Assembly (NCBI GenBank): GCA_964619155.1
Contig: CAZUEM010000004.1
Coordinates: 1-54,367, forward strand
DNA from: an uncultured bacterium
GTDB lineage: Bacteria > Eisenbacteria > RBG-16-71-46
Length of the DNA: 54,367 nt
Direction: 5' to 3'
Shown: in pieces, positions 12,979 to 40,694 of the stretch
Numbering within the stretch: the stretch's first letter is position 1
Layout of the letters: every line of letters starts with the position of its first letter
Program-made: the position numbers and the translations under genes
The notes under the pieces: generated by a model
Seen by the model: only the letters and a program-made list of their open reading frames with translations
What the model was told of the DNA's origin: nothing
The model's database searches: none

Positions 12979-12988
12979 GGGGCCGTTC

Positions 12989-13017: not shown

Positions 13018-13047
13018 GCGCGCCGCTTTTCCCGCGGCACCTTCGGT

Positions 13048-13124
13048 CGGGGCGTAGCGCAGCCCGGTAGCGCACCTGCATGGGGTGCAGGGGGTCGCTG
13101 GTTCGAATCCAGTCGCCCCGACCA
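13048..13124 (+). tRNA. tRNA-Pro (anticodon GGG), CCA encoded
   Basis: Hand-folded: acceptor cggggcg/cgccccg, D arm gcgc-agcccggta-gcgc, anticodon arm cctgc-atGGGgt-gcagg, T arm gctgg-ttcgaat-ccagt, discriminator a, then cca. Confidence 0.9.
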
Positions 13125-13144
13125 TCTCCTCCTCCCACAACGGC

Positions 13145-13939: not shown

Positions 13940-13955
13940 CGCCGGCCGCCCGTCC

Positions 13956-22863: not shown

Positions 22864-24699
22864 TCATTCGCCCTGGCGCTTCTCGATGCGCGCCCAGGCG
22901 TCCTTGAGCGTCACGGTGCGATTGAAGACCGGCGCCCCGGGCTTCGAATCCGCGTCGGGATAGAAGTAGCCCACGCGCTCGAACTGGACCGGCGTCCCCG
23001 CCGGCACGTCGGCCAGCGCGGCTTCGAGGCGGCAGCCGGTCACGACCTCGAGCGATCCGGGGTGGATGCCCGCGACGAAGTCCGCGCCCTCGGGCACGTC
23101 CTCGGGGTCCACCTGCGGGAACAGCGACTCGTAGAGGCGCACCTCGGCGCTCACGGCGTGCGGCGCCGACACCCAGTGGATCGTCGCCTTGACCTTGCGG
23201 CCGTCGGGGGCGTTGCCGCTGCGCGTGGCCGGATCGTACGTCGCCCGCACCTCGGTCACTTCGCCGGTCTCGGGGTCCTTCACGACGCCCGTGCAGCGGA
23301 CAAGGTACGCCGCGCGCAGCCGCACCTCGGCGCCGGGGGAGAGCCGGAAGTACTTCGGCGGCGGCGTCTCGCGGAAGTCGTCCTGCTCGATCCACAGCTC
23401 GCGCGAGAACGGCACCCGCCGCGTCCCTGCCGCCGGGTCCTCGGGGTTGTTCGCGGCCTCGAAGTGCTCGACCTGTCCTTCGGGATAGTTCTCGAGCACG
23501 ACCTTGAGCGGGCGCAGCACCGCCATGCGCCGCAGCGCGTGCCGGTTGAGGTCCTCGCGCACGCAGTGCTCGAGCAGCGCCAGTTCGACCCGGTTCTCGC
23601 GCCGCGCGACGCCGACGCGCTCCACGAAGTCGCGCAGCGCCGCCGCCGGGTAGCCGCGCCGCCGCATGGCCGAGATGGTCGGCATGCGCGGGTCGTCCCA
23701 GCCGCGCACGACGCCCTCCTGCACGAGGCGCAGGAGCTTGCGCTTGCTCATGACCGTGTGGGTGACGTTGAGGCGCGCGAACTCGTACTGGTGGGGCAGC
23801 GGCCGCGGCAGGTCGAGGGCCTCCAGCAGCCAGTCGTACAGCGGCCGGTGCGGGACGAACTCGAGCGTGCAGATGGAGTGCGTGACGCCTTCGATGTAGT
23901 CCGAGAGTCCGTGCGCGTAATCGTACATCGGGTAGATGCACCAGGCGTCGCCCGTCTGGTGGTGCGTCGCATGCCGGATCCGGTAGAGGATGGGGTCGCG
24001 CAGCCAGACGTTGTGTGAGTCCATGTCGATCTTCGCCCGCAGGGTGCGGGCGCCGTCGGGGAACTCGCCGGCGCGCATGCGCGCGAACAGCTCGAGGCTC
24101 TCGGCGGCCGGCCGCTCGCGCCAGCGGCTCGGGACGCCGGGTTCGCCGGGCGCGCCGCGCATGCGGTCCACCTCCTCGGCGGTGTGGTCACAGACGTAGG
24201 CGCGGCCTTTCTCGATGAGCCGCACGGCGTAGGCGTGGAGTTGCTCGAAGTAGTCCGAGGCGTAGAACGGTTCGAGCTCCGCGTCGCCGGCGGAGGCCGC
24301 CATCACCGGCGGCATGAAGAAGTCCTCGCGCCCCGCGACGTCCTGCGTCACGGGGGCCTCGTGCGCCTTCTTGAGGGCGAGCCGGTCGTCCGCCCAGCCC
24401 GCGACCAGCCAGCGCACGTCGGCGAGGATGGACTCGACGTACTCGACCTCCTCCTTCGCCGGGTTCGTGTCGTCCATGCGGAGGTTGCAGCGTCCTCCGA
24501 ACTGCTTCGCGATCCCGAAGTTGAGCACGATGGCCTTGGCGTGACCGATGTGCAGATAGCCGTTCGGCTCGGGCGGGAAGCGGGTGACGATGTTCGTGTG
24601 CAGCCCGCGGGCCAGGTCGGCCTTCACGATCTCGCGGATGAAGTCCTCGCGCTCGGCGGGCGCGGCGTCCGGCGTGCCGGTGGGGGTCGTCTCGCTCAT
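22864..24699 (-). CDS. glnS: Glutamine--tRNA ligase
   Basis: ATG 24699 (MSETTPTG..). Class I motifs: RFPPEPNGYLHIGHAKA (HIGH) and VMSKRKL (KMSKS). The C-terminal anticodon-binding beta-barrels have glutaminyl-type layout. Confidence 0.92.
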   Translation of the reverse strand: MSETTPTGTPDAAPAEREDFIREIVKADLARGLHTNIVTRFPPEPNGYLHIGHAKAIVLNFGIAKQFGGRCNLRMDDTNPAKEEVEYVESILADVRWLVAGWADDRLALKKAHEAPVTQDVAGREDFFMPPVMAASAGDAELEPFYASDYFEQLHAYAVRLIEKGRAYVCDHTAEEVDRMRGAPGEPGVPSRWRERPAAESLELFARMRAGEFPDGARTLRAKIDMDSHNVWLRDPILYRIRHATHHQTGDAWCIYPMYDYAHGLSDYIEGVTHSICTLEFVPHRPLYDWLLEALDLPRPLPHQYEFARLNVTHTVMSKRKLLRLVQEGVVRGWDDPRMPTISAMRRRGYPAAALRDFVERVGVARRENRVELALLEHCVREDLNRHALRRMAVLRPLKVVLENYPEGQVEHFEAANNPEDPAAGTRRVPFSRELWIEQDDFRETPPPKYFRLSPGAEVRLRAAYLVRCTGVVKDPETGEVTEVRATYDPATRSGNAPDGRKVKATIHWVSAPHAVSAEVRLYESLFPQVDPEDVPEGADFVAGIHPGSLEVVTGCRLEAALADVPAGTPVQFERVGYFYPDADSKPGAPVFNRTVTLKDAWARIEKRQGE

Positions 24700-24883
24700 G
24701 CCGGCAGGAAACGACACGAGGGCCCCGGCTGTCCACTCGCGGCGCCCCTTCGTCCGGCGGCCCGGCGCGCTCGTCGCGTGGACGGGGCGCGACGGTGCGG
24801 TCTCGGCTATCCTCATGTCCGTACGTCACGCCCGCAGGTCCCGGGTCCCCCGCCCGGCCGGGCGGCCCGGCCTGAACCCGATC

Positions 24884-27800
24884 ATGAACCCCACGACCCG
24901 ACGCCTGCTCACCGGCCTGCTGGCCATCGGTTGCGCGCTGTCCCCCGCGCCCGCGAACGCCGCCGGCGTTCCCGTCTCGACGGCTCCGTACGCACAGTCC
25001 GCGCCCCGGATCGTGGCCAGGCCCGGCGGGGGGGCCTGGGTGGCCTGGCTCGACGGGCGCTCGGGCTATTCGATCGACGTTTACGGCGCCATGCTCGATG
25101 CCGCGGGCACGCCCTCGACCGGCGGCGCCGACCAGGGCCTCGCGTTCACCGACATCACGTGCGTGAAGCGGGACCTCACGCTCGTCGCCGACGGCACCGG
25201 CGGGGCGATCGCGGCGTGGTCGGACAACCGCTGCAGCACTCCCGAGGGCTTCGACATCTTCGTGCTGCGGCTCGGGGCGGACGGCCGGCCGGCCGCGGGC
25301 TGGCCGGCGAACGGGAGGAACGTCTCCGCGGCTCCGGACTGGCAGGTCCAGCCCGCCCTGGCGCCGGACGGGAGCGGGGGCGCTTTCGTGGGATGGGTCG
25401 AACTGACCGGCTTCCTGCCCCGGGTCGTCGTCCACCACGTGCTCGCGAACGGAACGCTCGATCCGGCCTGGCCGGTCGCGGGCATCACGCTCGCCGTGGC
25501 GGGGGCCGAGGCCGCGTCTCCCGTCCTTGGCCCCGACGGCGCGGGCGGGTTCTACATCGCGTGGGGCGACCGCCGCGACGGCGACCTCGACCTGCGCCTG
25601 CAGCGGGTGTCGGGCACGGGGGCGATCGCCGCGGGCTGGCCCGCCGAGGCGATCGAGGCGTGCACCGCGCCGGACGAGCAGTTCGAACCGCGGCTCATCG
25701 CGGGCGTCTCGGGCGTCTCGCTGGCCTGGCTGGACCGGCGCGCGGAGGGCACCGCCCGCGTCTACGCGTGCCGCTTCCTGCCGAGCGGACAGCGCGCCCC
25801 GGGCTGGCCACTCGATGGCGTCGCGGTCGCGGCGGGCGGCGGGGCGCAGTCCGACCTCGTCGTCGCGCGCGCCGACGTCGGCGGCCTCCGGTTCGCCTGG
25901 GCGGAGGACCGCGGGCTCGGGAGCGGCCGCGACGTGTACGCGCAGCGCGTGGACTCGACGGGCGCCGTCGTCGCCGGGTGGCCGGCCTCCGGCGCCACGG
26001 CGTGCGCGGCGCCCGGCGACCAGTACGCGCCCTCGTTCACGCCCGACGGCGCGGGCGGGGCCTATTTCACGTGGACGGACGAGCGCGACACGCTGGCCGG
26101 CGGCCGCGACGTGTACGTGCAGCGCCTCGACGCCTCCGGGTCGGTGGCGGCCGGCTGGCCGGTGCACGGCTTCGCCCTGTGCGCGGACGCCGGGCACCAG
26201 CGCGAGCCCGTGCTGACGGGCAATGGCCGGGGCGGCGCGTTCGCCGTCTGGACCGACGGACGCAACGACGCCACCACGGCGGACGACATCGTCATGCGCG
26301 AGGTCGCACCCGCCGGTCCGGCGAGCGTCGGCGTGAGCGGCGTCACGGCCGCGCACCACGACGGGCAGACCTTCGTCCGCTGGAACGCGCCACCCGGCCA
26401 CGGCTGGACGTATCGCGTTTACGCCTCCGCCTCGCCGATCGCGGACGAGGGCGGCCTCGCCGCCGCCACGCTCGTCGGCACGGCGCGGGACTCCTCGGCC
26501 AGCGACGCGCGGCTCTCAGTCCTGCTCGGACAGGCCTGCGGCTACCGGACGGAGGCCGGCGGGCCGGAACTCGATCCCGCCGGGGGGCTCTTCGTCCGCA
26601 CCGTGCCCGCGCCGGGCGCCTCGTGGTACGCGGTGACCGCCCAGCCGGGCGCGCTCGGCGAGGACCGCACCGTGGCGGCCGGGAGCAACGCGCTCGCTTC
26701 CGCCGTCGCCGAGACGGTCGCCACGCCGCGTCCCGTCCTTCAGCGCACGGTCCCGTTCGGGGGGCGCGACGTCGAACTCTGGACGCTGTGGACCTGGGAC
26801 GAGGACGCCCCCGGGTTCCCGGCGATGGCCAACGAGGCCGGGCTGCCGTTCCCCTTCGGGCTGGTCCGGGGCGGTTCCCTCGGACCGCTCGTGCTCGGCT
26901 TCCACGCGCGCGGGGGCAGCCTGTTCGACGGCGTCGGCGGTTTCCTGCTCCCGGGCGAGTGGGTGCTCGCCCTCGACGACAGGCTGCCGAACGGCGAGAG
27001 CACGTTCTGGTTCGGATACCACCGCGCCTACGACGTGCGCACGGCTTCGAGCCCGCCGCCGATGGCCGGCGAGGTCGTGGGCTACACGGCGCGGCGCGTG
27101 GACTTCCTGCTCGACTGGGTGCGCCGCTCCTGCCCGGTGGACACGGCGCGCGTCTACGCCTACGGCTACTCGATGGGGGGCATGGGCGCGACCCAGCTCG
27201 CCCTGCGCTCGCCGGCGAAGGTCGCCGGCGTCATGACCGTGATCGGGCAGTTCGACTTCTCGTTCGAGGCCGACCCCAATCCCTCGTGCTGGTTCAATCC
27301 CGGCGGGCCGTTCCGCGCGCTCGCCGACCGGATCTGGGGCCCGGTGTCGGTGAACCTGCCGTCGGCCCCCGGCGGCACGCCCGTGTTCGATCTCCTGAAC
27401 GGCACGGCGGTCGCCGGGCAGGGCGCCCCCGGCGCGGACCTGCCTCCGCTCCTGTCCTTCAACGGCCGCAACGACGTCAACGTCGGCTGGGCCGAGAAGC
27501 CCCGCTTCTGGGCGGCGATGCAGGCCCACCGGCGCGGCGGCTGGTTCTACTGGGACGGGCGCGAGCACGGCGTCGCGGGCGCGTCGTGGATCCCCATGCA
27601 GACCCCGGCCGACCTCCTCGCACTGCGCACGGACCGGAGCTTCCCCGCGCTCTCCAACGGGGACGCGGACGGGGACCCGGGCGACGGCTCGCCCGCCAGC
27701 GGCGATTCCGTGGGCACCTTGAACGGCCACCTCGAGTGGGACGTGCCCCTGGAGGACGCGGCCGGCTGGAGCGTGACGCTCACGCTGCGCCCGCTCGAAC

Positions 27801-28324
27801 TGCTCGGACGCACGGTCCCGGCGCCGGAGTCGGCGCTCGTGGACGTCACGCCCCGGCGGCTGCAGTCGTTCGCCGTCGCGCCGTCGGAGCCCGTGCCGTA
27901 CCGGGTCGTGCGCGCCGCCGACGGGGCCGTCCTCGCCCGGGGTTTCGCCGTCGCGGACTCCGCCGGCGCCCTCACAGTGGCGGGCGTGCGCGTTCACCGG
28001 GCGGGCACGCGGATCGAGCTCGGGTCGCCCGCGCTCGCCGGCGTCGCGGGGACGGCCGGCGCGGCGGCGCTGCAGCTGGCGTGCGCCACGCCGGTCCGCG
28101 GCGGCGCGCTCGCGGCCGCGGTCGTGTGGCCCGCGGCGGAGGAGAGCCGGCTCGAGTTGCTCGACGTGGGCGGGCGCCGCGTCGCCACGCTCTTCGCGGG
28201 GCGGCCCTCGCCGGGGCCCGCGCGCTACGGCGCCCGCGGGGCAGCGCTCGCGCCCGGGCTCTACTTCCTGCGCGCCTCGTGCGGCGCCCGGACGCTCGCG
28301 CGCCGCGTCGTCGTGCTGCGCTGA
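24884..28324 (+). CDS. 1146-aa exported multidomain protein: ~8-blade repeat region, FN3-like linker, alpha/beta-hydrolase (esterase-like) domain, C-terminal sorting-like domain
   Basis: ATG 24884 with signal peptide MNPTTRRLLTGLLAIGCALSPAPANA. Eight tandem ~56-59-aa repeats. Nucleophile elbow GYSMGG (about nt 27164-27181). The C-terminus (RLELLDVGGRRVATL..GLYFLRASCGARTLARRVVVLR) resembles that of the protein at 20826..22808. Confidence 0.8.
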   Translation: MNPTTRRLLTGLLAIGCALSPAPANAAGVPVSTAPYAQSAPRIVARPGGGAWVAWLDGRSGYSIDVYGAMLDAAGTPSTGGADQGLAFTDITCVKRDLTLVADGTGGAIAAWSDNRCSTPEGFDIFVLRLGADGRPAAGWPANGRNVSAAPDWQVQPALAPDGSGGAFVGWVELTGFLPRVVVHHVLANGTLDPAWPVAGITLAVAGAEAASPVLGPDGAGGFYIAWGDRRDGDLDLRLQRVSGTGAIAAGWPAEAIEACTAPDEQFEPRLIAGVSGVSLAWLDRRAEGTARVYACRFLPSGQRAPGWPLDGVAVAAGGGAQSDLVVARADVGGLRFAWAEDRGLGSGRDVYAQRVDSTGAVVAGWPASGATACAAPGDQYAPSFTPDGAGGAYFTWTDERDTLAGGRDVYVQRLDASGSVAAGWPVHGFALCADAGHQREPVLTGNGRGGAFAVWTDGRNDATTADDIVMREVAPAGPASVGVSGVTAAHHDGQTFVRWNAPPGHGWTYRVYASASPIADEGGLAAATLVGTARDSSASDARLSVLLGQACGYRTEAGGPELDPAGGLFVRTVPAPGASWYAVTAQPGALGEDRTVAAGSNALASAVAETVATPRPVLQRTVPFGGRDVELWTLWTWDEDAPGFPAMANEAGLPFPFGLVRGGSLGPLVLGFHARGGSLFDGVGGFLLPGEWVLALDDRLPNGESTFWFGYHRAYDVRTASSPPPMAGEVVGYTARRVDFLLDWVRRSCPVDTARVYAYGYSMGGMGATQLALRSPAKVAGVMTVIGQFDFSFEADPNPSCWFNPGGPFRALADRIWGPVSVNLPSAPGGTPVFDLLNGTAVAGQGAPGADLPPLLSFNGRNDVNVGWAEKPRFWAAMQAHRRGGWFYWDGREHGVAGASWIPMQTPADLLALRTDRSFPALSNGDADGDPGDGSPASGDSVGTLNGHLEWDVPLEDAAGWSVTLTLRPLELLGRTVPAPESALVDVTPRRLQSFAVAPSEPVPYRVVRAADGAVLARGFAVADSAGALTVAGVRVHRAGTRIELGSPALAGVAGTAGAAALQLACATPVRGGALAAAVVWPAAEESRLELLDVGGRRVATLFAGRPSPGPARYGARGAALAPGLYFLRASCGARTLARRVVVLR
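25004..26310 (+). repeat. Protein-level tandem repeat array (8 units of ~56-59 aa), probable beta-propeller
   Basis: Read by eye, the units share the consensus P.l.pDG.GGa..aW.D.R.g...DvY.QRvd.sG....GWP..G...c.a.g.Q. Example unit starts: PDGAGGFYIAWGDRRDGDLDLRLQRVSGTGAIAAGWP, ADVGGLRFAWAEDRGLGSGRDVYAQRVDSTGAVVAGWP, PDGAGGAYFTWTDERDTLAGGRDVYVQRLDASGSVAAGWP. The DNA copies are diverged and are not exact repeats. Confidence 0.75.
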
Positions 28325-28328
28325 CGGC

Positions 28329-31160
28329 TCAGCCGTCCGCCTTCGGCCCGCGCGGCTGGACGAACTGCCAGCCGAAGCGGCCCTTCACGCACAGGTTGCC
28401 CTGCGTGATCGGGTTCTCGAGAGGCGAGGTGGCCTTGACCAGGCGGCCGTCCTGTTCGTGCATGCGCAGCGTGCAGCCCACGCCGCAGTAGGGGCAGATC
28501 GTGTCGGTCTCGCTCTGGCGCTCGGGATGCCACTCGCCGGCCGCGCGCAGGTCGAACTCGGACTTCGCCATGAGCGCGCCGGTGGGGCAGACGGCGATGC
28601 AGTTGCCGCAGTAGACGCACGCGGATTCGGGCAGCGGCACGTCGAGCTCGGTCGAGATGCGCGCGCCGAAGCCGCGCCCGGCGACCGCGATGGCGAACGT
28701 GTTCTGGTGGTCCTCGCCGCACGCCTCGACGCACTTGTAGCAGAGCACGCACTTCGCGTAGTCGCGGACGTACAGGTCGTTGTCCACCTTGACGGGCTGC
28801 GCGACCGTGGCGGCCACGCCGTCGGCGGGCGGTTCGTGGTGCCCGGCCTGCGCGTGGTCGCGGTCCTCGGGGGGCGCGGGCGGGCCGAAGCGGTCCGGTG
28901 CGCAGCCGTACTCGCGCTGGAGCGCCAGCATCTCGGGGGCGGCGGAGAGGTCCACCGAGGAGCCCAGCAGTTCGAGCACCAGCCGCCGCGAGTGGCGCAC
29001 GCGGGGCGATGCCGTGTGCACCACCATGCCGGGTTCGGCCGCGCGCGAGCAGCTCGGCGCCAGGACGCGCGCGCCCTCGACCTCGACCACACAGAGCCGG
29101 CAGGCGTTGGCCTGCGCCAGGGTCTTCAGGTAGCAGAGCGTCGGCACGCGGATGCCGAGCTTCGCGCAGGCGTCGAGCAGGGTGGCGCCCCGCGGCACCT
29201 CGACGGCCCGGCCGTCCACGGTCAGGGAGACCACGTCGGCGCGTTCGGGCGCGGGGGCGACGGCGGGCGATCGCACCGGGGCGGGGGCCGCCGACGGCGG
29301 CGCGTCGCCGAAGAGCGCGAACTTGCGCAGCGCCGACTCGACCGCCGCGCTCGCCGTCTGGCCGAGCCCGCAGATCGAGGCGTCGCGCATGTGCGAGCCC
29401 ACCTCGTCGAGCAGCACCAGTTCGTCGCGGAGCGACCCCCGCGGGCGGCCGCCGGCGAGGCGGTGGAGCGCCTCCTCCTGGCGCACCGTGCCGACGCGGC
29501 AGGGCACGCACTGGCCGCAGGACTCGTCGCGGAAGAACGCGGCGATGCGCAGCACGACGTCGCGCAGGTCCACCGAGTCGTCGAACACCATGACGACGCC
29601 CGATCCGAGCGTCGTGCCCGCGGCGCGCGCGGCCTCGAGCGTGAGCGGCAGGTCGAGTTCGTCGGCGGTGAGGAACGTCCCTGCGGCGCCGCCCAGCAGC
29701 ACGGCCCGGATCTCCCGGCCTTCGCCGACGTCGCCCGCCATCGCGACCAGTTCGCGCAGCGTGGTGCCCATCGGCACCTCGTAGACGCCCGGGAAGCGCA
29801 CGCTGCCGCTCAGGCAGAAGAGCCGTGTGCCGGTGGACTGCGCGGTGCCGCGCCGCGCGTAGGCCGCGCCGCCCTCGAGCACGATGCCCGGGACGTTGGC
29901 CAGCGTCTCGACGTTGTTGACGACGGTCGGGCGGCCGAACAGGCCGTGTTCGGCCGGGAACGGCGGCTTGCTGCGAGGCTCGCCGCGCCGTCCCTCGATG
30001 GACTCGAAGAGCGCGGTCTCCTCGCCGCAGATATAGGCGCCCGAGCCGCGCCGCACCTCGATGTCGAACGAGAACTCCGAGCCGAGGATGCGCTCCCCGA
30101 GCAGCCCGGCGGAACGCGCGGCCGACAGGGCGTTCGTCATGCGCTGGAACGCGAACGGGTACTCGGCCCGCACGTAGAGCCAGCCCTTCGTGCACCCGGC
30201 CGCGAACGCGGCGATGGTCATGGACTCCACGATCGCGAACGGATCGGCGCACAGCAGCACGCTGTCCTTGAACGTGCCGGGCTCGGATTCGTCGGCGTTG
30301 CAGACGAGGTGCTTCGGGCCCGCGGGCTGGGCGCGCACCGCCTGCCACTTGCGCGCGGTCGGGAAGGCGGCGCCGCCGCGGCCGACCAGACCGGCGGCGT
30401 CCACCTCGCGGATCACCGCCTCGGCGCCGATCTCGAGCGCGCGCGCGAGCGCCGCGTAGCCGCCCGATGCGCGGTAGGCCTCGAGGCGGGTCGGGTCCAC
30501 GACGCCGACGCGCCGCAGCAGCACCAGCGTCGGGTCGCCGCGCTGGGGGACGTCCGGGTGGGTCTCGCCGTCGGGCGGCGGCACCGGCCCCGCGAGCATG
30601 GTATGCACCGTGTGCGGCGTGACGTGGCCGATCAGGATCTCCTTCGGCTCCGCGCCGGCCTCGGTGAAGAGCGCCACGGGCCCGGCGTCGCAGAGCCCCA
30701 GGCAGGGCGAGCGCATCCAGCCCGAGGCCGCGTGGCCGTCGCCGTGCGGCAGCGGCGGACCGGCTTCGCGCTCGATCCGCTCGCACAGGCCGGACGCGCC
30801 GCGCGCCCGGCAGCCGATGTCGTCGCACACGTGCACGACGCGCTTCGGGCGCGGCGTGGTGGCGAGCAGCGCGTAGAAACTGGCCACCGACCAGCCTTCC
30901 GCCGGCGGCACGCCGAGGCGTTCGCAGACGTAGTTGAGCCCGCCGGCCGTGACCCAGCCCGCGCGAGCCTGCAGCGCCTGCAGCGCGGGCAGCAGGAGCG
31001 TGCGGCGCTCGCGCTGTTCGCGCCCGCCGTGCGCGACGCGCGCGTCGCGGTCCGAGCCGCGGGGGCCGCCGTCCCAGGCGGAGCGGGGAGGGCCGAGCAG
31101 CGCGTCCACGGCGGCGCGCTCGTCGGGGGTCGGGGCGGCGTCGAGGAGGCGGATGTCCAT
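28329..31160 (-). CDS. Fused NuoE-like / NuoF-like / NuoG-N-terminal-like iron-sulfur flavoprotein carrying the formate dehydrogenase N-terminal Fe-S modules (FdsG-FdsB-FdsA' fusion)
   Basis: ATG 31160 (MDIRLLDAAP) shares one nt with the upstream stop (TGATG). NuoE-type 2Fe-2S: VCDDIGC..SPCLGLCD. NuoF: GRGGAAFPTARKW, CNADESEPGTFKD, ESCGQCVPCRVG. NuoG-type 2Fe-2S: TVDGRAVEV..CRLCVVEV. Two 4Fe-4S ferredoxin motifs: CVLCYKCVEAC and CVYCGNCIAVCPTGA. The last 55 aa carry the MopB-type 4Fe-4S motif CPYCGVGC..CVKGRFGWQFV (nt about 28391-28496), and then the protein stops. Confidence 0.85.
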   Translation of the reverse strand: MDIRLLDAAPTPDERAAVDALLGPPRSAWDGGPRGSDRDARVAHGGREQRERRTLLLPALQALQARAGWVTAGGLNYVCERLGVPPAEGWSVASFYALLATTPRPKRVVHVCDDIGCRARGASGLCERIEREAGPPLPHGDGHAASGWMRSPCLGLCDAGPVALFTEAGAEPKEILIGHVTPHTVHTMLAGPVPPPDGETHPDVPQRGDPTLVLLRRVGVVDPTRLEAYRASGGYAALARALEIGAEAVIREVDAAGLVGRGGAAFPTARKWQAVRAQPAGPKHLVCNADESEPGTFKDSVLLCADPFAIVESMTIAAFAAGCTKGWLYVRAEYPFAFQRMTNALSAARSAGLLGERILGSEFSFDIEVRRGSGAYICGEETALFESIEGRRGEPRSKPPFPAEHGLFGRPTVVNNVETLANVPGIVLEGGAAYARRGTAQSTGTRLFCLSGSVRFPGVYEVPMGTTLRELVAMAGDVGEGREIRAVLLGGAAGTFLTADELDLPLTLEAARAAGTTLGSGVVMVFDDSVDLRDVVLRIAAFFRDESCGQCVPCRVGTVRQEEALHRLAGGRPRGSLRDELVLLDEVGSHMRDASICGLGQTASAAVESALRKFALFGDAPPSAAPAPVRSPAVAPAPERADVVSLTVDGRAVEVPRGATLLDACAKLGIRVPTLCYLKTLAQANACRLCVVEVEGARVLAPSCSRAAEPGMVVHTASPRVRHSRRLVLELLGSSVDLSAAPEMLALQREYGCAPDRFGPPAPPEDRDHAQAGHHEPPADGVAATVAQPVKVDNDLYVRDYAKCVLCYKCVEACGEDHQNTFAIAVAGRGFGARISTELDVPLPESACVYCGNCIAVCPTGALMAKSEFDLRAAGEWHPERQSETDTICPYCGVGCTLRMHEQDGRLVKATSPLENPITQGNLCVKGRFGWQFVQPRGPKADG

Positions 31161-33091
31161 CAGGGCGTTCCCGTGGCGTTCGCGAGCGCGGGCTCCACGC
31201 GCACCGCGCAGGCCTTGAACTCCGCCGTCCCCGACTTCGGGTCGGCGGCGTCGATGGTGAGGAGGTTGGTCGCCACGTCGTCGGGGAAGTGCAGCGTCAT
31301 GAAGACGAGGCCCGCGCGCAGCCCGGCGTCCACGCGGGCGGGGGCGGTGAGCGACCCGCGCCGCGACGTGACGCGGACGGGGTCGCCGGTCTCGACGCCG
31401 AGGCGCGCCGCGTCCTCGGGCGAGAGGTCGAGCGTCTCGCCGAAGTGCAGGGGCGAGGCGTAGCCGCTCGTCTGCACCCCCGTGTTGTACGACTCGAGCC
31501 GGCGGCCCGTGGTGAGCAGGAACGGGTATTCCGCGTCCGGCTTCTCCGCGGGGCCCACCCAGCGGACGACCGAGAACGGCGCCGGGCGCCCGCCGAGCGG
31601 CTCCTCCCAGAGGCGCCCGTGCAGGAACGGCGTTCCGGGGTGGGACTCGTCGGGGCAGGGCCACTGGATGCCCTGCAGCGCCTCGAGCCGGGCGTAGCTC
31701 ATGCCGCCCGCGAACTCCGGCGCGACCGCGCGGAACTCGTTCCACAGCTCCTCGGCCGACGGCGAGCCGAGATCGGTCCCGAACCGGCGCGCGAGCTCGG
31801 CGAGGATCCACAGTTCGTCGCGCGCGCCCTCGGGCGGCGCGACGGCGCGGCGCACGCGCTGCACGCGGCGCTCGCTGTTCGTGACCGTACCCTCGCCCTC
31901 GACCCAGGTGGCCGCCGCGGGCAGCACGACGTGCGCGAACTCGGCGGTCCGGGTCAGGAAGATCTCCTGCACGACCAGGTGCTCCAGCCCGGCGAGAAGC
32001 TGCTCGACGTGGCCGGCGTCGGCGTCGGACTGGGCCGGGTTTTCGCCGATCACGAACAGCGAGCGGAGATCCCCGCGGCCCATCGCTCGCAGCATCTCGG
32101 TCAGGTTCCAGCCGTATCGCGGCTGGATCGGCACGCCCCAGCGCGCCTCGAAGCGCGCGCGCACCGCCGGGTCGAGGATGTCCTGGAAACCCGGCAGCCG
32201 GTTCGGGATCGCGCCCATGTCGCCGCCGCCCTGCACGTTGTTCTGCCCGCGGAGCGGGTTGCAGCCGCTGCCGCGCCGCCCGACGTGGCCGGTGAGCAGC
32301 GTGAGGTTGATGAGCGCGAGGACGTTGTCCACCGCGTCGTGGTGCTCGGTGATCCCGAGCGTCCAGCAGATCATGGCCTTGCCGGCCTTCGCGAACGCGT
32401 GCGCCGCCTCGCGGATCACGTCGCCCGGCACGCCCGTCACGCGCTCGGCGTACTCGAGCGTGTACGGCTCGACCGCCTCGCGGTAGGCCTCGAACCCGGT
32501 CGTGGCGTGCCCGATGAAGCGCCGGTGGTGGAGGCCGGCGGCGATGATCTCGCGCCCCATGGCGTTCGCCAGCGCGATGTCGCTGCCCACGTCGAGCCCC
32601 AGCCAGACGTCGGCCCAGCGGGCGGACGACGTCCGCCGCGGGTCCATCACGTACAGCCGCGTGCCGCGGTGCAGCCCCTTCAGCAGGTGGTGGAACCAGA
32701 TGGGGTGCGCTTCACGCGCGTTCGAGCCCCAGAGGAAGACGACGTCCGTCTCCTCCACCTCCTGGTAGGAGTTCGTCCCGCCACCCGCACCGAAGACCGT
32801 CGCCAGACCGACGACGCTGGGCGCGTGTCAGGTACGGTTGCAGCTGTCGATGTTGTTCGTGCCGAACGCGACGCGGGCCAGCTTCTGCGCCAGGAAGTTC
32901 ACCTCGTTGGTGGACTTCGAGCAGCTGAAGATGCCGAGCGCGTTCGGCCCGTGCGCGTCGCGCACGCGGCGGAACCCCGACGCGGCGCGATCCAGCGCCT
33001 CGTCCCAGCTCGCGGGCCTCAGGCGGCCGTTCTCGCGGACGAGGGGCTGCGTCAGGCGGGCGTTGGGGCGGGGGCTGAAGCGAGCGGACAT
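31160..33091 (-). CDS. fdhA: Formate dehydrogenase catalytic (molybdopterin) subunit, selenocysteine-containing, lacking the N-terminal Fe-S domains
   Basis: ATG 33091 is preceded by GGAGGT. The in-frame TGA at 32830-32828 sits in the motif NNIDSCNRT-U-HAPSVVGLATVFGAGGGTNSYQEVEETDVVFLWGSNAREAHP, which is the active-site Sec/Cys-His context of FdhF/FdhA. The frame is continuous with ORF 31160..32758 (RGQNNVQGGGDMG and others). The ORF track shows the gene as two ORFs (32828..33091 and 31160..32758). Confidence 0.85.
32799..32815 (-). promoter_or_regulatory. Bacterial SECIS-like hairpin downstream of the in-frame UGA
   Basis: mRNA: UGA CAC GCG CCC AGC GUC GUC GGU CUG GCG AC. A 6-bp stem GUCGUC/GGCGAC (one G-U pair) closes the loop GGUCU and starts 12 nt after the UGA. 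As I recall it, the GGUCUG element sits at the same codon offset as in the E. coli fdhF SECIS. Confidence 0.7.
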
Positions 33092-33178
33092 GACCGACCT
33101 CCGGGAACGGAACGTGCGAGACGGACGACCGCAGGATGGACGAGGCCCCGCCCCGGTGGCAAGCGCGCGGCGCGACCG

Positions 33179-35179
33179 CTAGCGCAGGACGAAGACGCGG
33201 ACGAGCGTGTTGCCGATGCCGACGAGCGCCGCGCCCGCCACGAGGCCCGCGCACACGGGCTCGTGCGAGCCGATCCACAGCCGGTGCCCCGTCGTGCCGG
33301 GACGCTTCGCCCAGCGCCGGTTCGCGAGCTCGAAGAACGCGGCGCCGGCGAACATGGCCATCGTGGACTCCGGCGGCACCAGCACGCCGAGCCCGATCGC
33401 GAGCGGGCTCAGCCAGAAGCGCCCGCCGGTGACGATGCGCAGCACCTCGAAGGCGACGCCCGCCACGGCGGCCGCGATCATGGACGCGACGATCGAGTCC
33501 GTGAGCAGGGTGCCCTGGCCGCCCGCCCCGAAGATGGACGTGACCAGCTCCGAGACGCCCTTCCACTGCACCGCCGAGGGGAAGCTGAACTGGCCGTCCT
33601 CCGGGGCCATCGCGGCCTGGACGCTGGCGCCCGGCTTCCAGTCCGAAAGGAACAGGGCGTAGAAGAGCGGCGTCGAGGCGAGCGCGCCGGCGACGATGCC
33701 GATCGCGTGCCCGATCGCCTGCTGGCGGGGCTTGGCGCCGAGCATGTAGCCGGGCTTGATGTCCATGAGCAGGTTCGAGGCGTTCGACGCCACCTCGACG
33801 CACATGACGCCGGTCATGAGGTTCGTGGGCGGGTGCTTCGGGTCGAGGGCGCCGAACGTGAACTGCGGGATCTTCGAGAGCGCGCCGGTCGGGGTGATGC
33901 TGGTCATCGCGGTGCTGCGCGCCGCGATCAGCGTGAGCAGCACGATCATCGGGATGGCCAGCGCGCCCCACAGCGGGTGGACGCCGAACCAGTGCCACGC
34001 CATCCACACGCCGACGGCCCCGACCACCGGGATGCCCACGTACGAGACGGGCAGCGGCAGTTCGAGGTGCGCGACCGGGTCCCCGGCGGCGGGCCGGGCC
34101 GGCCCGGTCCGCCGGAACCCCTTCACCAGGTCGAGGAACACCTGCGGCTTCGCGAACAGCGAGACGAGCGACGCCGAGACCATGATCGCGATGCCCCACC
34201 ACAGCGACCAGCCGTTCACCACGTGGACGCGGCCGAAGACCGCGGTGCCGTCGGCGAGCGAGCCCGAGCGCGGCGCGATCTCGCCCGCGTGGATCATCCA
34301 CGGCACGAGCACCACGAAGTTGACGACCATGCCCACCAGCAGGCTGGTCGCGGTGCGGATGCCCATCAGGCCGCCGGCCCCGAACATCGCCCAGTCGAGC
34401 GCGGGCCGCAGCCCGAGCTGGCGGAAGTCGATCCCGGCCACGGTCGGCGCGGCGGCGAGGCCACGGTCCACGAGGCCGTAGTACCACTGGTCCAGCTCGC
34501 GCGGCAGGAACCATGCCCTCTCGAGCCCCGCGAGCCGCTCCTGGATCCAGCGCATGTACGACTCGCCGGAGACGAAGGTCACCGTCCCGGCGACGAGCGC
34601 GGCGAAGCCGAGGGCCTTGGCCTTGAACACGCCGATCGCCGCGTCGGCGGTGTAGAGCGTGTCGAGCACCACGCCGCAGGCGCGCCCCTGCGGGAACGGC
34701 TGCTGCTCGTCGTTGATGAACATCCGCTTCATCGGGAAGGCGACCAGCACCCCGAGCAGCGACAGCACGACGTTGAAGGCCAGCATGGGCAGCCACGGCA
34801 GCGGCTCGTTCTGGATCCACATGTAGGCCGCCAGCCCCGAGGTGAGCGGCCCGGTCATGTAGCCCGCCGCGGTCGCCACCGACTGCGTGGCGTTGTTCTC
34901 GAGGATGGTCATGTCCTTCGCGCCGAGCGTCGCGAGCAGCCGGTAGAGCGCGAACGACAGGATCACCGAGGTCAGCCCGACGCCGAGCGTCCAGCCCGTC
35001 ATCGCGCCCACGTAGAGGTTCGTGGCGCTCAGCAGCCCGCCGAGGACGAAGCCCGTGAGCGCGGCGCGGACCGTGAGCTGCGGCATGTCGCCGCGGTAGA
35101 CCTTTTCCAGCCACCAGCGGTCCTTCTGCTCGCGGCTCCAGTCGCGGACCTGCTGCTCGGTCAGGTGCTCGATCGCCAT
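33179..35179 (-). CDS. OPT-family oligopeptide transporter
   Basis: ATG 35179 (MAIEHLTEQQ..) is preceded by GGAGGG. 666-aa polytopic membrane protein with an OPT-like N-terminus (QLTVRAALTGFVLGGLLSATNLYVGAMTGWTLG) and about 14-16 hydrophobic segments. Confidence 0.8.
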   Translation of the reverse strand: MAIEHLTEQQVRDWSREQKDRWWLEKVYRGDMPQLTVRAALTGFVLGGLLSATNLYVGAMTGWTLGVGLTSVILSFALYRLLATLGAKDMTILENNATQSVATAAGYMTGPLTSGLAAYMWIQNEPLPWLPMLAFNVVLSLLGVLVAFPMKRMFINDEQQPFPQGRACGVVLDTLYTADAAIGVFKAKALGFAALVAGTVTFVSGESYMRWIQERLAGLERAWFLPRELDQWYYGLVDRGLAAAPTVAGIDFRQLGLRPALDWAMFGAGGLMGIRTATSLLVGMVVNFVVLVPWMIHAGEIAPRSGSLADGTAVFGRVHVVNGWSLWWGIAIMVSASLVSLFAKPQVFLDLVKGFRRTGPARPAAGDPVAHLELPLPVSYVGIPVVGAVGVWMAWHWFGVHPLWGALAIPMIVLLTLIAARSTAMTSITPTGALSKIPQFTFGALDPKHPPTNLMTGVMCVEVASNASNLLMDIKPGYMLGAKPRQQAIGHAIGIVAGALASTPLFYALFLSDWKPGASVQAAMAPEDGQFSFPSAVQWKGVSELVTSIFGAGGQGTLLTDSIVASMIAAAVAGVAFEVLRIVTGGRFWLSPLAIGLGVLVPPESTMAMFAGAAFFELANRRWAKRPGTTGHRLWIGSHEPVCAGLVAGAALVGIGNTLVRVFVLR

Positions 35180-35230
35180 GCGGCCCTCCGGGTGCGGATC
35201 GGGAGCCGGCACCTTAGCGCGCGCGCCGCC

Positions 35231-35258: not shown

Positions 35259-36818
35259 TCAGCTCCGGCGCAGCCGCCCGAGCAGCGAGCCGGCCAGCAT
35301 GCGCGTCTCGGCCCAGCCGACCGCGGCCAGCGTCGAGCCGGCCAGGCAGAGCGCGCCGCCCGCGACGCCCGCGCCGAGCACCGTGGCGAGCGAGTGGCCG
35401 TACCAGGGCTTCGCGAACCACAGGAGCGCCAGGGCCGGCGCGCCGCCCGCCAGAGCGGGCGCGAGCGAGGCGAGCGAGCCGCGGATGGACGGGATCGTGG
35501 AGTCGCCGCGGTTGAGGAGCGGCCGCAGCAGCAGGTTCTTGAGCAGCACCGCCGCGGCGTGGCCGAGCGCGAACCCCATGGGCCCCAGGCCCAGCGGCAG
35601 GGCCAGCGCGAGGCCGATCGCGGGCTTGGTCACCGCGGCGATCACGTCGCCGGCGGCGATGCGGCCGATCTGGCCGCGCGCCATCATCGCCATCCAGGTG
35701 GGCTCGAGCGGCATGCCGACGAGCATCGGCAGCAGCACGGCCATCATGTACTGCTGGCAGTGCGCGTAATCGGGTCCGACCCAGCGGGCGAGGAACACGT
35801 CGCCGAGGATGCACGGCACGAGGCAGACGGGCACCGCGATCGCGCTCGTGATGCGCGCCGCGCGATGGACGACCGCCCGCGTGCGCTCGAGGTCGCCGCG
35901 CGCCTCCATCTGCGTGAGCAGGGGCGTCAGCGCCGAGACGCCCGCCCAAAGGAAGCCCTGGATCATCGGCGCCCAGCGCGTTCCGAGCGAATACTCCGTC
36001 ACGCGCGCCGGGCCGTAGAGGCCGCCGATGAGCAGGTTGTCGGTCGCGAGATAAAGGATCGAGGCCACCTGCGAGAGCACGCCGAGGCCGCTGAACGCGA
36101 AGAGCGCCCGCCGCACCTCGCGGTCGCCGAACTCGAGCGGCGGGACGATCCGCGGCACGACCCGGCTGCGCGCGGCCACGAACCCCAGCAGCACCGTGCC
36201 CGCGATCTCGGCGAGCAGCGCCGCGGCGGCGTAGACCCGCAGGCTCGGCACGAAGAGCAGGAACGCGGGCACCACGAAGCCGACCCGCAGCAGCGCCTGG
36301 GCGATGCGCACGAGCGAGATGCGCGAGGTCCGCCCGGTGACGTAGACCGGGACCTCGAGGATCGCGCCCACGTCCATCACCCCGGCGCTGAGGAAGATGA
36401 GCACCAGCCCGCCGACCGCGTCGGTGAGCAGGTGCGGCTCGACCTTCATGAACGCGCAGAGCAGCCGCGCGACCGCGATGCCGATGCCGACCACGGCGAG
36501 CCGCAGCACGGACGCCCACCAGAACCCGGCGGAGTAGTAGCGCTGCGCGAGGTCGCGCTCGCCGGCGTGCCAGTGCACCGTGACGTAGCGCCGCATGCCC
36601 GTGCCGAGCCCGCCGCGCAGCAGCCACAGGTACTCGAGGACCGAGCCGGCGGCGGCGCTGATGCCGTACAGCTCGCGGCCGATGCCGTGCAGGACGAAGG
36701 GGGTGAGCACGATGCCCACCACCATGTTCGCGACGCGCGCCGTCAGGCTGGTGGCCGCGTTCAGGGCCGCGGTGGCCGCCATGCCGCGGGCGGGGGGCTT
36801 CTCGGCCGGGGCGCTCAC
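35259..36818 (-). CDS. MOP/Wzx-type polysaccharide or oligosaccharide flippase family membrane protein
   Basis: GTG 36818 overlaps the stop of the upstream GNAT gene (GTGA). The alternative start is ATG 36782 (MAATAALNAAT). There are about 12-14 hydrophobic segments, and the layout is typical of polysaccharide biosynthesis / MurJ-Wzx superfamily proteins. Confidence 0.75.
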   Translation of the reverse strand: MSAPAEKPPARGMAATAALNAATSLTARVANMVVGIVLTPFVLHGIGRELYGISAAAGSVLEYLWLLRGGLGTGMRRYVTVHWHAGERDLAQRYYSAGFWWASVLRLAVVGIGIAVARLLCAFMKVEPHLLTDAVGGLVLIFLSAGVMDVGAILEVPVYVTGRTSRISLVRIAQALLRVGFVVPAFLLFVPSLRVYAAAALLAEIAGTVLLGFVAARSRVVPRIVPPLEFGDREVRRALFAFSGLGVLSQVASILYLATDNLLIGGLYGPARVTEYSLGTRWAPMIQGFLWAGVSALTPLLTQMEARGDLERTRAVVHRAARITSAIAVPVCLVPCILGDVFLARWVGPDYAHCQQYMMAVLLPMLVGMPLEPTWMAMMARGQIGRIAAGDVIAAVTKPAIGLALALPLGLGPMGFALGHAAAVLLKNLLLRPLLNRGDSTIPSIRGSLASLAPALAGGAPALALLWFAKPWYGHSLATVLGAGVAGGALCLAGSTLAAVGWAETRMLAGSLLGRLRRS

Positions 36819-37891: not shown

Positions 37892-37938
37892 GCCGCCGTC
37901 CGGGGTCGTGCGGCCGTCGGCCGCGGGGGGAATGGGAA

Positions 37939-37965
37939 GCGCGCGGAGGGGGCGCCTCCGCGCGC
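37939..37965 (-). terminator. Strong hairpin (possible internal terminator or attenuator) between the SGNH-like and GNAT genes
   Basis: Perfect 11-bp stem gcgcgcggagg / cctccgcgcgc with a 5-nt loop. On the minus-strand RNA it is followed by UUCCCAUUCCCC. It lies in the 85-nt gap between stop 37977 and start 37891. Confidence 0.4.
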
Positions 37966-37976
37966 GGGGATCGAAG

Positions 37977-38819: not shown

Positions 38820-38860
38820 CGGGGCCTCCCGTCCGGGCCGCGCATCGCCGCCGCGGCGCC

Positions 38861-39109
38861 TCACGACGCCTTGCGCTTGCGCTCGACGAACGCGGCGATG
38901 CGCTCGATCGAGTCGAGGTTCTCGGGCACGATCTCGTCGTCCTCGACCGTCACGCCGAAGGTCGTCTCGAGGAACCCCATGATCTCGAGCACGCCGGTCG
39001 AGTCCACCACGCCCAGGTCGAGCAGGGAAGCCGTGTCGGTGAGCCCGGCGGCATCCTGCACGAAAAAGTTCCCCGTCACGAACTCGCGCACCCGCTTTCT
39101 CGTGTCCAT
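38861..39109 (-). CDS. Stand-alone acyl/peptidyl carrier protein
   Basis: 82 aa. Phosphopantetheine attachment context LLDLGVVDS(37)TGVLEIMGFLETTFGV. It starts 8 nt after the ligase stop. The upstream part of ORF 38861..40423 is a shadow extension. Confidence 0.8.
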   Translation of the reverse strand: MDTRKRVREFVTGNFFVQDAAGLTDTASLLDLGVVDSTGVLEIMGFLETTFGVTVEDDEIVPENLDSIERIAAFVERKRKAS

Positions 39110-39117
39110 GGATTCCG

Positions 39118-40683: not shown

Positions 40684-40694
40684 GCCGGCCGGGT

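Follow-up and report, generated by a model that had tools for sequence, protein, structure and literature searches.

Two overlapping genes encode a predicted NAD-linked metal formate dehydrogenase with divided domains and permuted gene order, a variant widespread in soil bacteria

Two overlapping genes on the minus strand of a contig from an uncultured bacterium of the lineage Eisenbacteria (54,367 nucleotides analysed, hereafter the window) probably encode a cytoplasmic formate dehydrogenase of the FdsABG/MeFDH1 kind, which consists of two chains, is linked to NAD(P) and depends on molybdenum or tungsten, and in which the domains are divided in an unusual way. Judged from comparative sequence analysis, this layout is a real, widespread and probably functional new variant of the NAD-linked metal formate dehydrogenases. 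The original prediction had described a 943-residue chain with a terminal cap, coupled by a TGATG overlap to the gene for the catalytic body, and all of these sequence statements were borne out by translation and by Pfam and NCBIfam searches on both proteins, which placed the cap and the body on separate chains as claimed. The same searches and alignment also agree with the statement that FdsG-, FdsB- and FdsA'-like parts form one chain in the window. The features of the two genes are collected in Table 1.

Table 1. Coordinates of the two genes, their domains and their putative signals in the window
Feature	Coordinates	Strand	Details and basis
NuoE-NuoF-NuoG'-cap electron-transfer chain gene	28329..31160	(-)	943 aa, ~100 kDa; translation and Pfam/NCBIfam
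NuoE/FdsG-like thioredoxin-type [2Fe-2S] domain	30660..31013	(-)	Residues 50-167; Cys112, 117, 153, 157; Pfam 2Fe-2S_thioredx
NuoF/FdsB-like FMN/NAD(H) domain and [4Fe-4S]	29316..30404	(-)	Residues 253-615; Cys548, 551, 554, 597; Pfam Complex1_51K/SLBB/NADH_4Fe-4S
Pro/Ala-rich linker	29235..29315	(-)	Residues 616-642; product of the fusion of EF and G'-cap genes, from comparison with loci having a stop codon between both genes
NuoG/HoxU/FdsA-N-terminal-like module	28572..29234	(-)	[2Fe-2S] Cys676, 687, 690, 704; two [4Fe-4S], Cys804-814 and Cys848-858
MopB FS0 cap	28332..28511	(-)	[4Fe-4S] Cys889, 892, 896, 924 and conserved Lys926 of CVKGRF; then 17-residue tail and stop codon
TGATG stop/start overlap of body gene and fusion gene	31158..31162	(-)	...gggaacgcccTGATGgacatc...
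Cap-less Mo/W-bisPGD catalytic body gene	31160..33091	(-)	643 codons including Sec88; ~70 kDa; translation, Pfam, TIGR01591
SECIS element	32772..32833	(-)	Weak Rfam SECIS_3 match (18.4 bits), fold, synonymous-site conservation, RNAalifold
In-frame UGA (codon 88), decoded as selenocysteine	32828..32830	(-)	Motif SCNRT*HAPSV (SCNRT-U-HAPSV)
GGAGG Shine-Dalgarno	33098..33102	(-)	3' end 6 nt upstream of body start codon; read from sequence

The reading frame of the electron-transfer chain runs from an ATG at 31160 to a stop codon at 28329..28331, and its C-terminal end reads ...ICPYCGVGC...LCVKGRFGWQFVQPRGPKADG before the stop. Pfam recognised Fer2_4 (residues 643-718), Fer4 (801-863) and Molybdop_Fe4S4 (884-935) in the C-terminal half, and the search of the whole chain returned no Molybdopterin domain. 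According to the ligand map, in which cluster roles were assigned after PMC7171172, all ligands for the on-path clusters A1, A2, A3, A5 and B6 are present. In the alignment to RcFdsA, the NuoG' module lacks the His/Cys3 motif of off-path cluster A4, and SSVDLSAAPEML...YGC stands in its place. PDB matches of the NuoF part to HydB-type subunits outscore those to FdsB, which makes the assignment of NAD(P)+ as the acceptor tentative. The same full-length fusion architecture was found in approximately 47 database clusters at 66-95% identity. The window contains no further MopB, NuoE or NuoF paralogue.

The body gene opens with MSARFSPRPNARLTQPLVRENGRLRPASWDEAL at 33091, and its Pfam content consists of Molybdopterin (E = 9.7e-69) and Molydop_binding (4.5e-27) only. 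No Fe-S cluster motif was found in the 643 residues with the Cys/Sec map and domain profiles, and the FS0 cap is on the other chain. The active-site residues are U88, H89 and R281 of an RGQ motif; U88-H89 aligns with the CH pair of RcFdsA, and R281-G-Q aligns with its NPLRGQNNVQG. On the Fdh-alpha profile of NCBIfam (TIGR01591), the C-terminus of the fusion matches positions 1-49 and the body matches positions 52-672; therefore, because the two chains are complementary on one profile, the cut is clean. At 670.5 bits, the body clears the cutoff of 666.25 by only about 4 bits, because profile positions 1-51 are missing from it. Among the NCBIfam models matching the body, Fdh-alpha alone exceeds its cutoff, and the NasC and NasA models are next-best. 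When the pieces are joined in canonical order, residues 4-936 give one unbroken alignment with residues 25-932 of RcFdsA (6tg9_A, 613 bits), and an end-to-end alignment is obtained with the alpha subunit of MeFDH1 (605 bits); CVKGRF, the C/U-H pair and NPLRGQNNVQG all line up. The joined alignment and the divided profile uphold the claim of a single inter-domain break in the catalytic subunit, and likewise the claim that its two halves are encoded in an order opposite to the canonical one. Scanning 28000..33500 for promoters and terminators gave no hits, which is uninformative at 75% GC.

The body gene at 31160..33091 is not an uninterrupted reading frame. The original prediction made no mention of the in-frame TGA at codon 88, at which the ORF listing and gene callers break the gene into about 87-88 and 532-533 residues. 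This codon is TGA in all 64 readable related loci, always within the same motif, and the actinomycete orthologues have Cys at the position. The apical hairpin of the putative SECIS element, GUCGUC-GGUCU-GGCGAC, is located at 32799..32815, and its loop begins 18 nt past the UGA. In the SECIS of E. coli fdhF, the apical loop GGUCU lies at the same distance from the UGA. In an alignment of 67 sequences, synonymous sites are frozen across the hairpin only, where a Gly codon is GGT in 67 of 67 and four neighbouring wobble positions are likewise fixed. The 6-bp stem and GGUCU loop obtained with RNAalifold are broken in none of 64 sequences, and two sequences carry compensatory changes. The Rfam SECIS models score far below their gathering values (SECIS_3, 18.4 vs 63 bits; SECIS_2, 15.1 vs 70 bits), and at gathering thresholds Rfam finds three tRNAs and nothing else in the window; therefore, the case for the SECIS element rests on comparative evidence. 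An in-frame TGA followed by a conserved hairpin of this type indicates that the body gene encodes a selenoprotein with UGA recoded at codon 88. The window contains none of selA, selB, selC, selD and fdhD. Among the related loci, a tRNA-SeC gene is found near the body gene in three (L065, L067 and L072), and selD lies directly upstream in the first two of these.

The arrangement had been put forward as either a lineage-specific solution or a rearrangement scar, and a survey of related genomes for the same fission and order contradicts both suggestions. The 80 nearest genome loci bear approximately ten phylum labels; 76 of them have the body gene upstream and on the same strand, and in none is the cap joined to the body. 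In most related loci, the body gene is followed by the same -1 overlap or by a gap of 0-10 nt. Members of the split family come from Gemmatimonadota, Acidobacteriota, Chloroflexota, Actinomycetota, Dormibacterota and Eremiobacterota, and split components dominate the best matches listed in three word-index protein searches, each of which returned at least 8,000 candidates. Cultured actinomycetes (Streptomyces canus, Nonomuraea phyllanthi and Saccharopolyspora antimicrobica) have the same operon order in Cys versions; fdhD follows the operon in the first two species, and genes for the formate-producing enzymes oxalyl-CoA decarboxylase and formyl-CoA transferase lie beside it in the last two. 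The split bodies have a single origin, forming one clade in 200 of 200 bootstraps. Members of this clade share at least 52% identity with one another, and their identity to unsplit enzymes does not exceed 47%. Therefore, the single clade marks an old, selected architecture. These sequence comparisons identify the split layout as a widespread family in soil bacteria, neither a scar nor specific to one lineage. Restriction to lineages does hold for the fusion of NuoE-NuoF (EF) to NuoG'-cap (G'cap), which is rare (6 of 80 loci) and has at least two origins.

In 11 related loci, unrelated genes, some of them on the opposite strand, are located between the body and EF, and one locus (L053) has no body within 6 kb upstream; therefore, co-transcription is not obligatory. 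The inserts in some Chloroflexota and Gemmatimonadota loci encode kinases, a cold-shock protein and unknowns. Another locus, L051, also contains a complete unsplit Sec formate dehydrogenase. In the related loci, tblastn found no remnant of a second cap upstream of the body gene and none of a body after the cap. Long upstream open frames in four loci (L004, L005, L015 and L080) are probably due to chance in high-GC DNA.

The FdsABG(D) enzymes of Rhodobacter capsulatus and Cupriavidus necator (PDB 6TG9/6TGA) share their cofactor modules and the on-path chain bisPGD-A1-A2-A3-A5-B6-FMN with the window enzyme. However, FdsA is one chain, whereas the window version is cut after the FS0 cap and its body is encoded first; the canonical operon order is fdsGBACD. 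Furthermore, G, B and A are separate in FdsABG, whereas G, B and A' are one chain in the window; RcFDH has cluster A4 (His117, Cys121, Cys124, Cys130), which the window chain lacks; the metal ligand of FdsA is Cys, whereas that of the window body is Sec; and no FdsD was seen in the window. The beta subunit of MeFDH1, the tungsten FDH1 of Methylorubrum extorquens, is a NuoE-NuoF fusion. This enzyme (Fdh1AB; PDB 7VW6/7E5Z) is likewise two-chain and NAD-linked, its beta subunit matches the NuoF part of the window chain, and its alpha subunit also lacks the A4-type His/Cys3 motif in the alignment. In MeFDH1, the NuoG'-like module, cap and body are all on alpha, whereas in the window the other chain carries the module and cap, and Sec serves as the ligand. 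Escherichia coli FdhF shares the Sec-His active site, the RGQ arginine and the cap lysine (K44 in FdhF) with the window enzyme, but its cap and body are in one chain and the NuoE, NuoF and NuoG' modules are lacking. In complex I, NuoE-NuoF-NuoG (Nqo2-1-3) has the same E, F, G' module order and homologous clusters, and the counterpart of the window cap is the site of cluster N7; however, NuoG keeps a degenerate, cofactor-free MopB body in-chain, whereas the window body is separate and is predicted to be a catalytically competent selenoprotein. A precedent for a MopB catalytic subunit in two polypeptides is the formylmethanofuran dehydrogenase FwdB/FwdD of M. wolfeii (PMC7171172). That split takes off the C-terminal domain IV, whereas the window split takes off the N-terminal FS0 cap, so that the proximal cluster and the conserved Lys would act in trans.

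By its domain content, chain 1 provides the pterin-binding MopB body only, free of Fe-S clusters, with Sec88 as the metal ligand followed by His89 and with Arg281 in RGQ, and its UGA is predicted to be recoded by the SECIS hairpin directly downstream. Chain 2 provides the remainder. Its NuoE part has a [2Fe-2S] cluster; its NuoF part has FMN, the NAD(H) site and one [4Fe-4S] cluster; its NuoG' part has one [2Fe-2S] and two [4Fe-4S] clusters; and its very end is formed by the FS0 cap, which contributes a further [4Fe-4S] cluster together with the conserved Lys. Cluster A4, which in RcFDH lies off the path at the dimer interface, is missing. According to the mechanism that we propose, the cap would dock in trans on the body and complete MopB domain I, and electrons from formate would pass from the Mo/W-pterin to FS0, the two [4Fe-4S] clusters, [2Fe-2S], [4Fe-4S], FMN and finally NAD(P)+, as in RcFDH. 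The order body, EF and G'cap, followed by fdhD in some relatives, is a cyclic permutation of fdsG-B-A(-C). This permuted order arose once, the family would then have spread across soil phyla, and the EF and G'cap genes were additionally fused in the lineage of the window.

A broader reading, which we offer tentatively and hold somewhat short of even confidence, is that the family may be a monophyletic class of NAD(P)-linked Mo/W formate dehydrogenases that is found throughout soils, has so far gone uncharacterised and assembles MopB domain I in trans. The electron-wire chain would then carry the proximal [4Fe-4S] cluster and conserved Lys, and the Fe-S-free catalytic (seleno)subunit would mature independently. 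With the selenoprotein gene in first place and coupled through TGATG, synthesis of the cofactor-rich chain could be tied to successful UGA recoding, acting as a selenium checkpoint.

At first glance, an in-frame stop in the body gene and its fragmentation by gene callers might suggest a misassembly, a frameshift or a stop-broken pseudogene. However, dozens of independent assemblies, closed chromosomes among them, show the same cut, order and TGA, which speaks against the assembly or frameshift artefact that the original prediction had listed as one way to refute it; moreover, the operon is present with Cys in cultured isolates, the SECIS hairpin is conserved, and both genes have a third-position GC of 0.96-0.97, which is typical of coding sequence in the window. 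An artefact or a product of decay is effectively refuted, and we give it next to no probability. It is also very unlikely that the two gene products are not partners, with the cap chain serving as a diaphorase or electron wire for some other enzyme, or with the body working without FS0 or with a partner encoded elsewhere. The cap domain is specific to MopB enzymes and serves no purpose in the absence of a MopB body. On one profile, the body begins at the very point where the cap stops, the linkage is kept in 76 of 80 loci with genes that mostly overlap or abut, and the window holds no other MopB gene. These observations outweigh, in our view, the existence of MopB enzymes without FS0 altogether (PMC10100899), the unrelated genes that part body from EF in 11 loci, and the complete unsplit enzyme of L051.

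The two chains may form a real complex that is not a simple formate:NAD+ oxidoreductase but an NAD(P)H-driven CO2 reductase, an enzyme for another substrate, or a flavin-based bifurcating enzyme; we consider this unlikely. The nitrate-reductase families NasC and NasA are the second-best matches of the body, the EF part matches best to HydB/NfnB-type subunits of bifurcating enzymes, and RcFDH-type enzymes are reversible in vitro. Hallmarks of the bifurcating Bfu enzymes (HydABC/NfnABC-type) are a separate HydC and, at the C-terminus of HydB, a 2x[4Fe-4S] domain. The window chain has neither, as it enters the G' module (Fer2_4) directly past residue 615 and has a single thioredoxin-like [2Fe-2S] domain; a bifurcating enzyme, although suggested by the HydB-type best PDB matches, was rejected on this architecture. 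Formate as the substrate is favoured by the Sec-His pair and RGQ, which are the class I formate dehydrogenase signature (PMC8808070), by Fdh-alpha as the sole model above its cutoff, and by the fdhD and oxalate-to-formate genes that adjoin the operon in actinomycetes. An NAD(P)-linked formate dehydrogenase in two chains remains our preferred reading. We had also considered that the split might limit the waste from failed Sec insertion and would thus go with Sec, and dropped this idea as a general rule given the unsplit Sec enzyme of L051 and the split Cys versions of cultured actinomycetes.

Insertion of FS0 is a prerequisite for pterin insertion in NarG (PMC5123574), and the Lys adjacent to FS0 is essential for the active structure of FdhF (PMC12176258). 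The molybdoenzyme literature consulted treats the proximal FS0 as part of the catalytic chain, whereas the family described here would supply FS0 and Lys in trans and demonstrates that the cut is tolerated. It may serve as a natural in-trans system for separating cofactor maturation from assembly, and it may offer an Fe-S-free catalytic module for the engineering of CO2/formate catalysts. Neither a published description nor a curated family for the split layout was found in the full-text literature and databases searched, and the family is apparently uncharacterised. The possibility that it was already a common annotated family was thus half correct: it is common in public genomes, but its components bear generic names only, such as 'molybdopterin-dependent oxidoreductase', '2Fe-2S iron-sulfur cluster-binding protein' and 'NADH-quinone oxidoreductase subunit F'. 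Gene callers also split the Sec forms, and soil surveys of formate metabolism probably under-count or mislabel the family.

Because the window has a G+C content of 72-77%, mechanical ORF lists contain many shadow frames, and real genes were told from these by position-specific GC. Two overlapping genes encode the formate dehydrogenase (FDH). The product of the upstream gene, the MopB catalytic chain or body, contains the Molybdopterin and Molydop_binding domains only. The downstream product, a fusion, begins with a NuoE-type thioredoxin-like [2Fe-2S] domain, followed by a NuoF-type FMN/NAD domain with a [4Fe-4S] region, a Pro/Ala linker and a NuoG/HoxU-type module (G'; Fer2_4 and a di-cluster ferredoxin), and its final 60 residues are the MopB Molybdop_Fe4S4 domain, or cap. 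The NCBIfam Fdh-alpha profile is matched at positions 1-49 by the cap and at positions 52-672 by the body, the body-gene stop overlaps the fusion-gene start in TGATG, and the window contains no further MopB, NuoE or NuoF gene. Therefore, the original prediction of a split and reordered FDH, with the cap ending the fusion and the body encoded upstream, is accurate.

Locations of the genes and sites discussed (L numbers denote loci of related genomes)
Feature	Sequence	Position	Strand
Fusion gene, 943 aa, downstream of the two overlapping genes	window	28329..31160	-
Body gene, upstream of the two	window	31160..33091	-
In-frame TGA, body codon 88	window	32828..32830	-
OPT-family oligopeptide transporter gene	window	33179..35212	-
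Seven-gene run	window	35259..43681	-
1246-aa ORF	window	24584..28324	+
Glutaminyl-tRNA synthetase-type class I synthetase gene	window	22864..24816	-
tRNA-SeC/selD neighbourhood	L065	466..1867	
tRNA-SeC/selD neighbourhood	L067	217..3113	
tRNA-SeC neighbourhood	L072	37..135	
Split FDH operon and oxalate genes	L083, N. phyllanthi	1..4537	
Split FDH operon and oxalate genes	L084, S. antimicrobica	1279..6518	
Unsplit Sec FDH	L051, Limnocylindrales MAG	9511..14426	-
Frame change in body gene	L045	about 5626..5629	
Frame change in body gene	L064	about 4391..4510	

When fusion residues 641-943 are joined to the body in canonical order, the resulting sequence aligns in one stretch with FdsA of Rhodobacter capsulatus (RcFdsA; 6TG9_A, residues 25-932; 613 bits), with the alpha subunit of MeFDH1 from Methylorubrum extorquens (605 bits) and with 9wxb_B (957 residues, deposited as 'Formate dehydrogenase alpha subunit'; 604 bits). 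The polypeptide is divided within the loop linking CVKGRFG... to RLTxPL. According to a ligand map against the RcFDH structure (PMC7171172), all on-path clusters are present in the fusion, with ligands at Cys889, 892, 896 and 924 together with Lys926 (A1, or FS0), Cys848-858 and Cys804-814 (A2 and A3), Cys676-704 (A5, [2Fe-2S]) and Cys548-597 (B6); an off-path G7-like [2Fe-2S] cluster has its ligands at Cys112-157. The sole RcFDH cluster that the map and alignment show to be absent from the window chains is A4, an off-path His/Cys3 cluster at the RcFDH dimer interface (PMC7171172), which MeFDH1 alpha likewise lacks in the same alignment. The absence of A4 points to a simple MeFDH1-like heterodimer and not to a dimer of protomers as in RcFDH. 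The body is devoid of cluster motifs and carries U88, H89 and R281 of the RGQ motif, the U/C-H plus RGQ arginine signature of class I FDHs (PMC8808070). The NuoE-NuoF part (EF) is most similar to HydB-type subunits (414 bits), with lower scores for CnFdsB (353), MeFDH1 beta (323) and RcFdsB (301). It has no extra C-terminal ferredoxin domain, which is a hallmark of bifurcating enzymes.

Codon 88 of the body gene, which the original prediction did not mention, is an in-frame TGA (SCNRT*HAPSV) at the FDH metal-ligand position, aligned with the Cys of CH in RcFdsA. TGA occurs in the identical context in 64/64 related loci with a readable codon, and orthologues of cultured actinomycetes have Cys there (SCNRTCHAPSV). 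These and the following observations indicate that the codon encodes selenocysteine. Directly 3' of it lies the hairpin GUCGUC-GGUCU-GGCGAC, exactly on which SECIS_3 and SECIS_2 match weakly in a local Rfam scan, far below the gathering score. In a comparison of 67 body-gene sequences spanning many phyla, the five hairpin codons have frozen synonymous third positions (GTC 65/67, xxC 67/67, GGT 67/67, CTG 67/67, GCG 65/67) and adjacent four-fold sites vary freely. Moreover, RNAalifold independently recovered the same 6-bp stem, which is broken in none of the sequences and shows a compensatory C-G to G-C change in two. The window itself contains no sel genes or tRNA-SeC; three Chloroflexota MAG loci (L065, L067 and L072) have a tRNA-SeC gene 2-3 kb upstream of the body, and two of them (L065 and L067) also have selD directly upstream of the body gene (322 and 330 bits; cutoff 125). 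Gene callers split Sec bodies into pieces of about 88 aa and 533 aa.

A genome scan yielded 512 relatives, and we dissected the best 80 loci by domain-wise tblastn. The predicted split and order recur in 76 of these 80, with the body upstream on the same strand and, in most, overlapping or abutting the EF gene; in 11 loci the two are 0.85-4.7 kb apart, with unrelated genes between them in the two loci examined. Of the other four, L021 and L074 lie on contigs that end before a body could show, L049 offers just 2.8 kb of upstream sequence, and in L053 no body lies within 6 kb upstream. In none of the best 80 loci does a body follow the cap, a stop occurring 0-73 codons past its matched part. The closest relatives are labelled Eisenbacteria (about 70% identity; closest MAGs, Candidatus Eisenbacteria), and the other labels include Gemmatimonadota, Acidobacteriota, Chloroflexota, Actinomycetota, Dormibacterota, Eremiobacterota and Planctomycetota, with one 'proteobacterium' and one Spirochaetia. 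L015 (DATLRQ010000161.1), a typical split operon 58% identical to that of the window, is labelled 'Candidatus Micrarchaeaceae archaeon' and is probably mis-binned. The body genes of L045 and L064 have frame changes amid otherwise intact homology, which may be sequencing errors or recent pseudogenisation.

The window represents a rarer sub-variant in which the EF and G'-cap genes are fused. In 74/80 loci EF (about 630 aa) and G'-cap (about 318 aa) are separate proteins with a stop between them, and the fusion is confined to L001-L006 among the best 80. Because the L006 linker retains LVQLQRPTIATD, the N-terminal motif of separate G' proteins in its Gemmatimonadaceae relatives, and the Pro/Ala linker of the window clade is unrelated to it, the fusion arose at least twice. 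Protein searches agree with the locus survey: they found about 47 clusters with the 943-aa-type architecture and far more numerous stand-alone EF and G'-cap proteins, under generic names ('NADH-quinone oxidoreductase subunit F', '2Fe-2S iron-sulfur cluster-binding protein', 'YjgC', 'HndD').

The layout also occurs in cultured organisms. A full-library HMMER search found a cap-less Cys-type body in Streptomyces tendae, and a search with this protein found cap-less bodies of 612-637 aa in S. canus, S. flavofungini, S. niveus and many Nonomuraea species, as well as in Actinomadura, Saccharopolyspora, Actinoallomurus and Allonocardiopsis. The body gene is followed by genes for NuoE-NuoF (about 600 aa) and then Fer2_4-Fer4-Molybdop_Fe4S4 (about 290-335 aa) proteins in S. 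canus, N. phyllanthi (closed chromosome CP045572) and Saccharopolyspora antimicrobica, and fdhD comes after the G'-cap gene in the first two. Genes for oxalyl-CoA decarboxylase, formyl-CoA transferase and an ADP-forming CoA ligase adjoin the operon divergently in N. phyllanthi and S. antimicrobica, which links it to oxalate catabolism; since that pathway yields formate, formate is supported as the substrate.

In a neighbour-joining tree of 541 trimmed columns from the body region 3' of the Sec/Cys codon, the split forms all group in one clade, whether they have Sec or Cys (200/200 bootstraps). The actinomycete Cys forms are a subclade (200/200), and the Sec forms alone are a clade in only 52/200 replicates. 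Members of the split clade share at least 52% identity with one another and at most 47% with any unsplit representative, including the unsplit Sec enzyme of L051. The interleaving of taxa within this clade suggests that the family spread horizontally. Compared with fdsGBACD, body-EF-G'cap-(fdhD) is a cyclic permutation of E-F-[G'cap-body], which could have come about by tandem duplication and then two deletions, or if the body segment transposed once; domain-wise tblastn of related loci found no relics that decide between them. The L051 enzyme (HCART-U-HAPTV), on a contig that also carries a split FDH, has the order [G'-cap-body], E, F and is 45-49% identical to the window body. Four database proteins of 1365-1373 aa (P0248, P0250, P0258 and P0260), with a MopB body from about residue 810-830, appear to be larger single-chain fusions, probably of a NuoF-like part with a complete FdsA.

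A Sec-dependent, Fe-S-free catalytic chain is produced first, and the coupled gene yields one chain with FMN, the NAD(H) site, six Fe-S clusters and the cap. We propose that the cap docks onto the body in trans to complete domain I of MopB, that Lys926 and FS0 stand in for K44 and FS0 of FdhF (roles described in PMC12176258), and that electrons would flow to FMN and then NAD(P)+. NarG takes up FS0 before the pterin, and this step makes pterin insertion possible (PMC5123574); a cap supplied in trans implies that maturation follows another order. Speculatively, the gene order couples translation of the costly second chain to successful UGA read-through, although this cannot be the sole reason for the order because the Cys forms retain it.

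The enzyme probably works like FdsABG and MeFDH1, sharing the catalytic and cofactor features of both, but differs from them in its cap outside the catalytic chain, its divided alpha chain, its departure from the G-B-A order and, with respect to FdsABG, its lack of A4. FwdB/FwdD is a known MopB split, but at the opposite protein end. The superfamily reviews and phylogenies consulted mention FS0 loss and Fe-S-rich extensions and contain no mention of FS0 in trans (PMC8808070, PMC5123574, PMC10100899), and no description of the layout was found in the full-text literature searched, which leaves out most subscription journals. We consider the variant real, conserved and widespread and, within an enzyme kind already known, apparently undescribed; it is surprising for molybdoenzyme specialists and of use in annotation and engineering, but opens no new category.

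A glutaminyl-tRNA synthetase-type gene is also present in the window. The 1246-aa ORF has coding-like codon-position GC (GC3 0.95) but belongs to no Pfam or NCBIfam family; 4 nt separate its stop from that of the convergent fusion gene, leaving no room for terminators. The OPT transporter gene, which shares the strand of the body gene and lies 87 nt upstream of it, is not conserved as an FDH neighbour in related locus L081. The same-strand run beyond it encodes a polysaccharide-type flippase, a GNAT protein, a 295-aa protein, an 86-aa acyl carrier protein, an acyl-CoA ligase (best model TIGR03098, exosortase-A-associated ligase; 450 bits against a cutoff of 592), an AsnB-type amidotransferase and NAD synthase, and it resembles an exosortase/PEP-CTERM-associated acyl-modification cassette.
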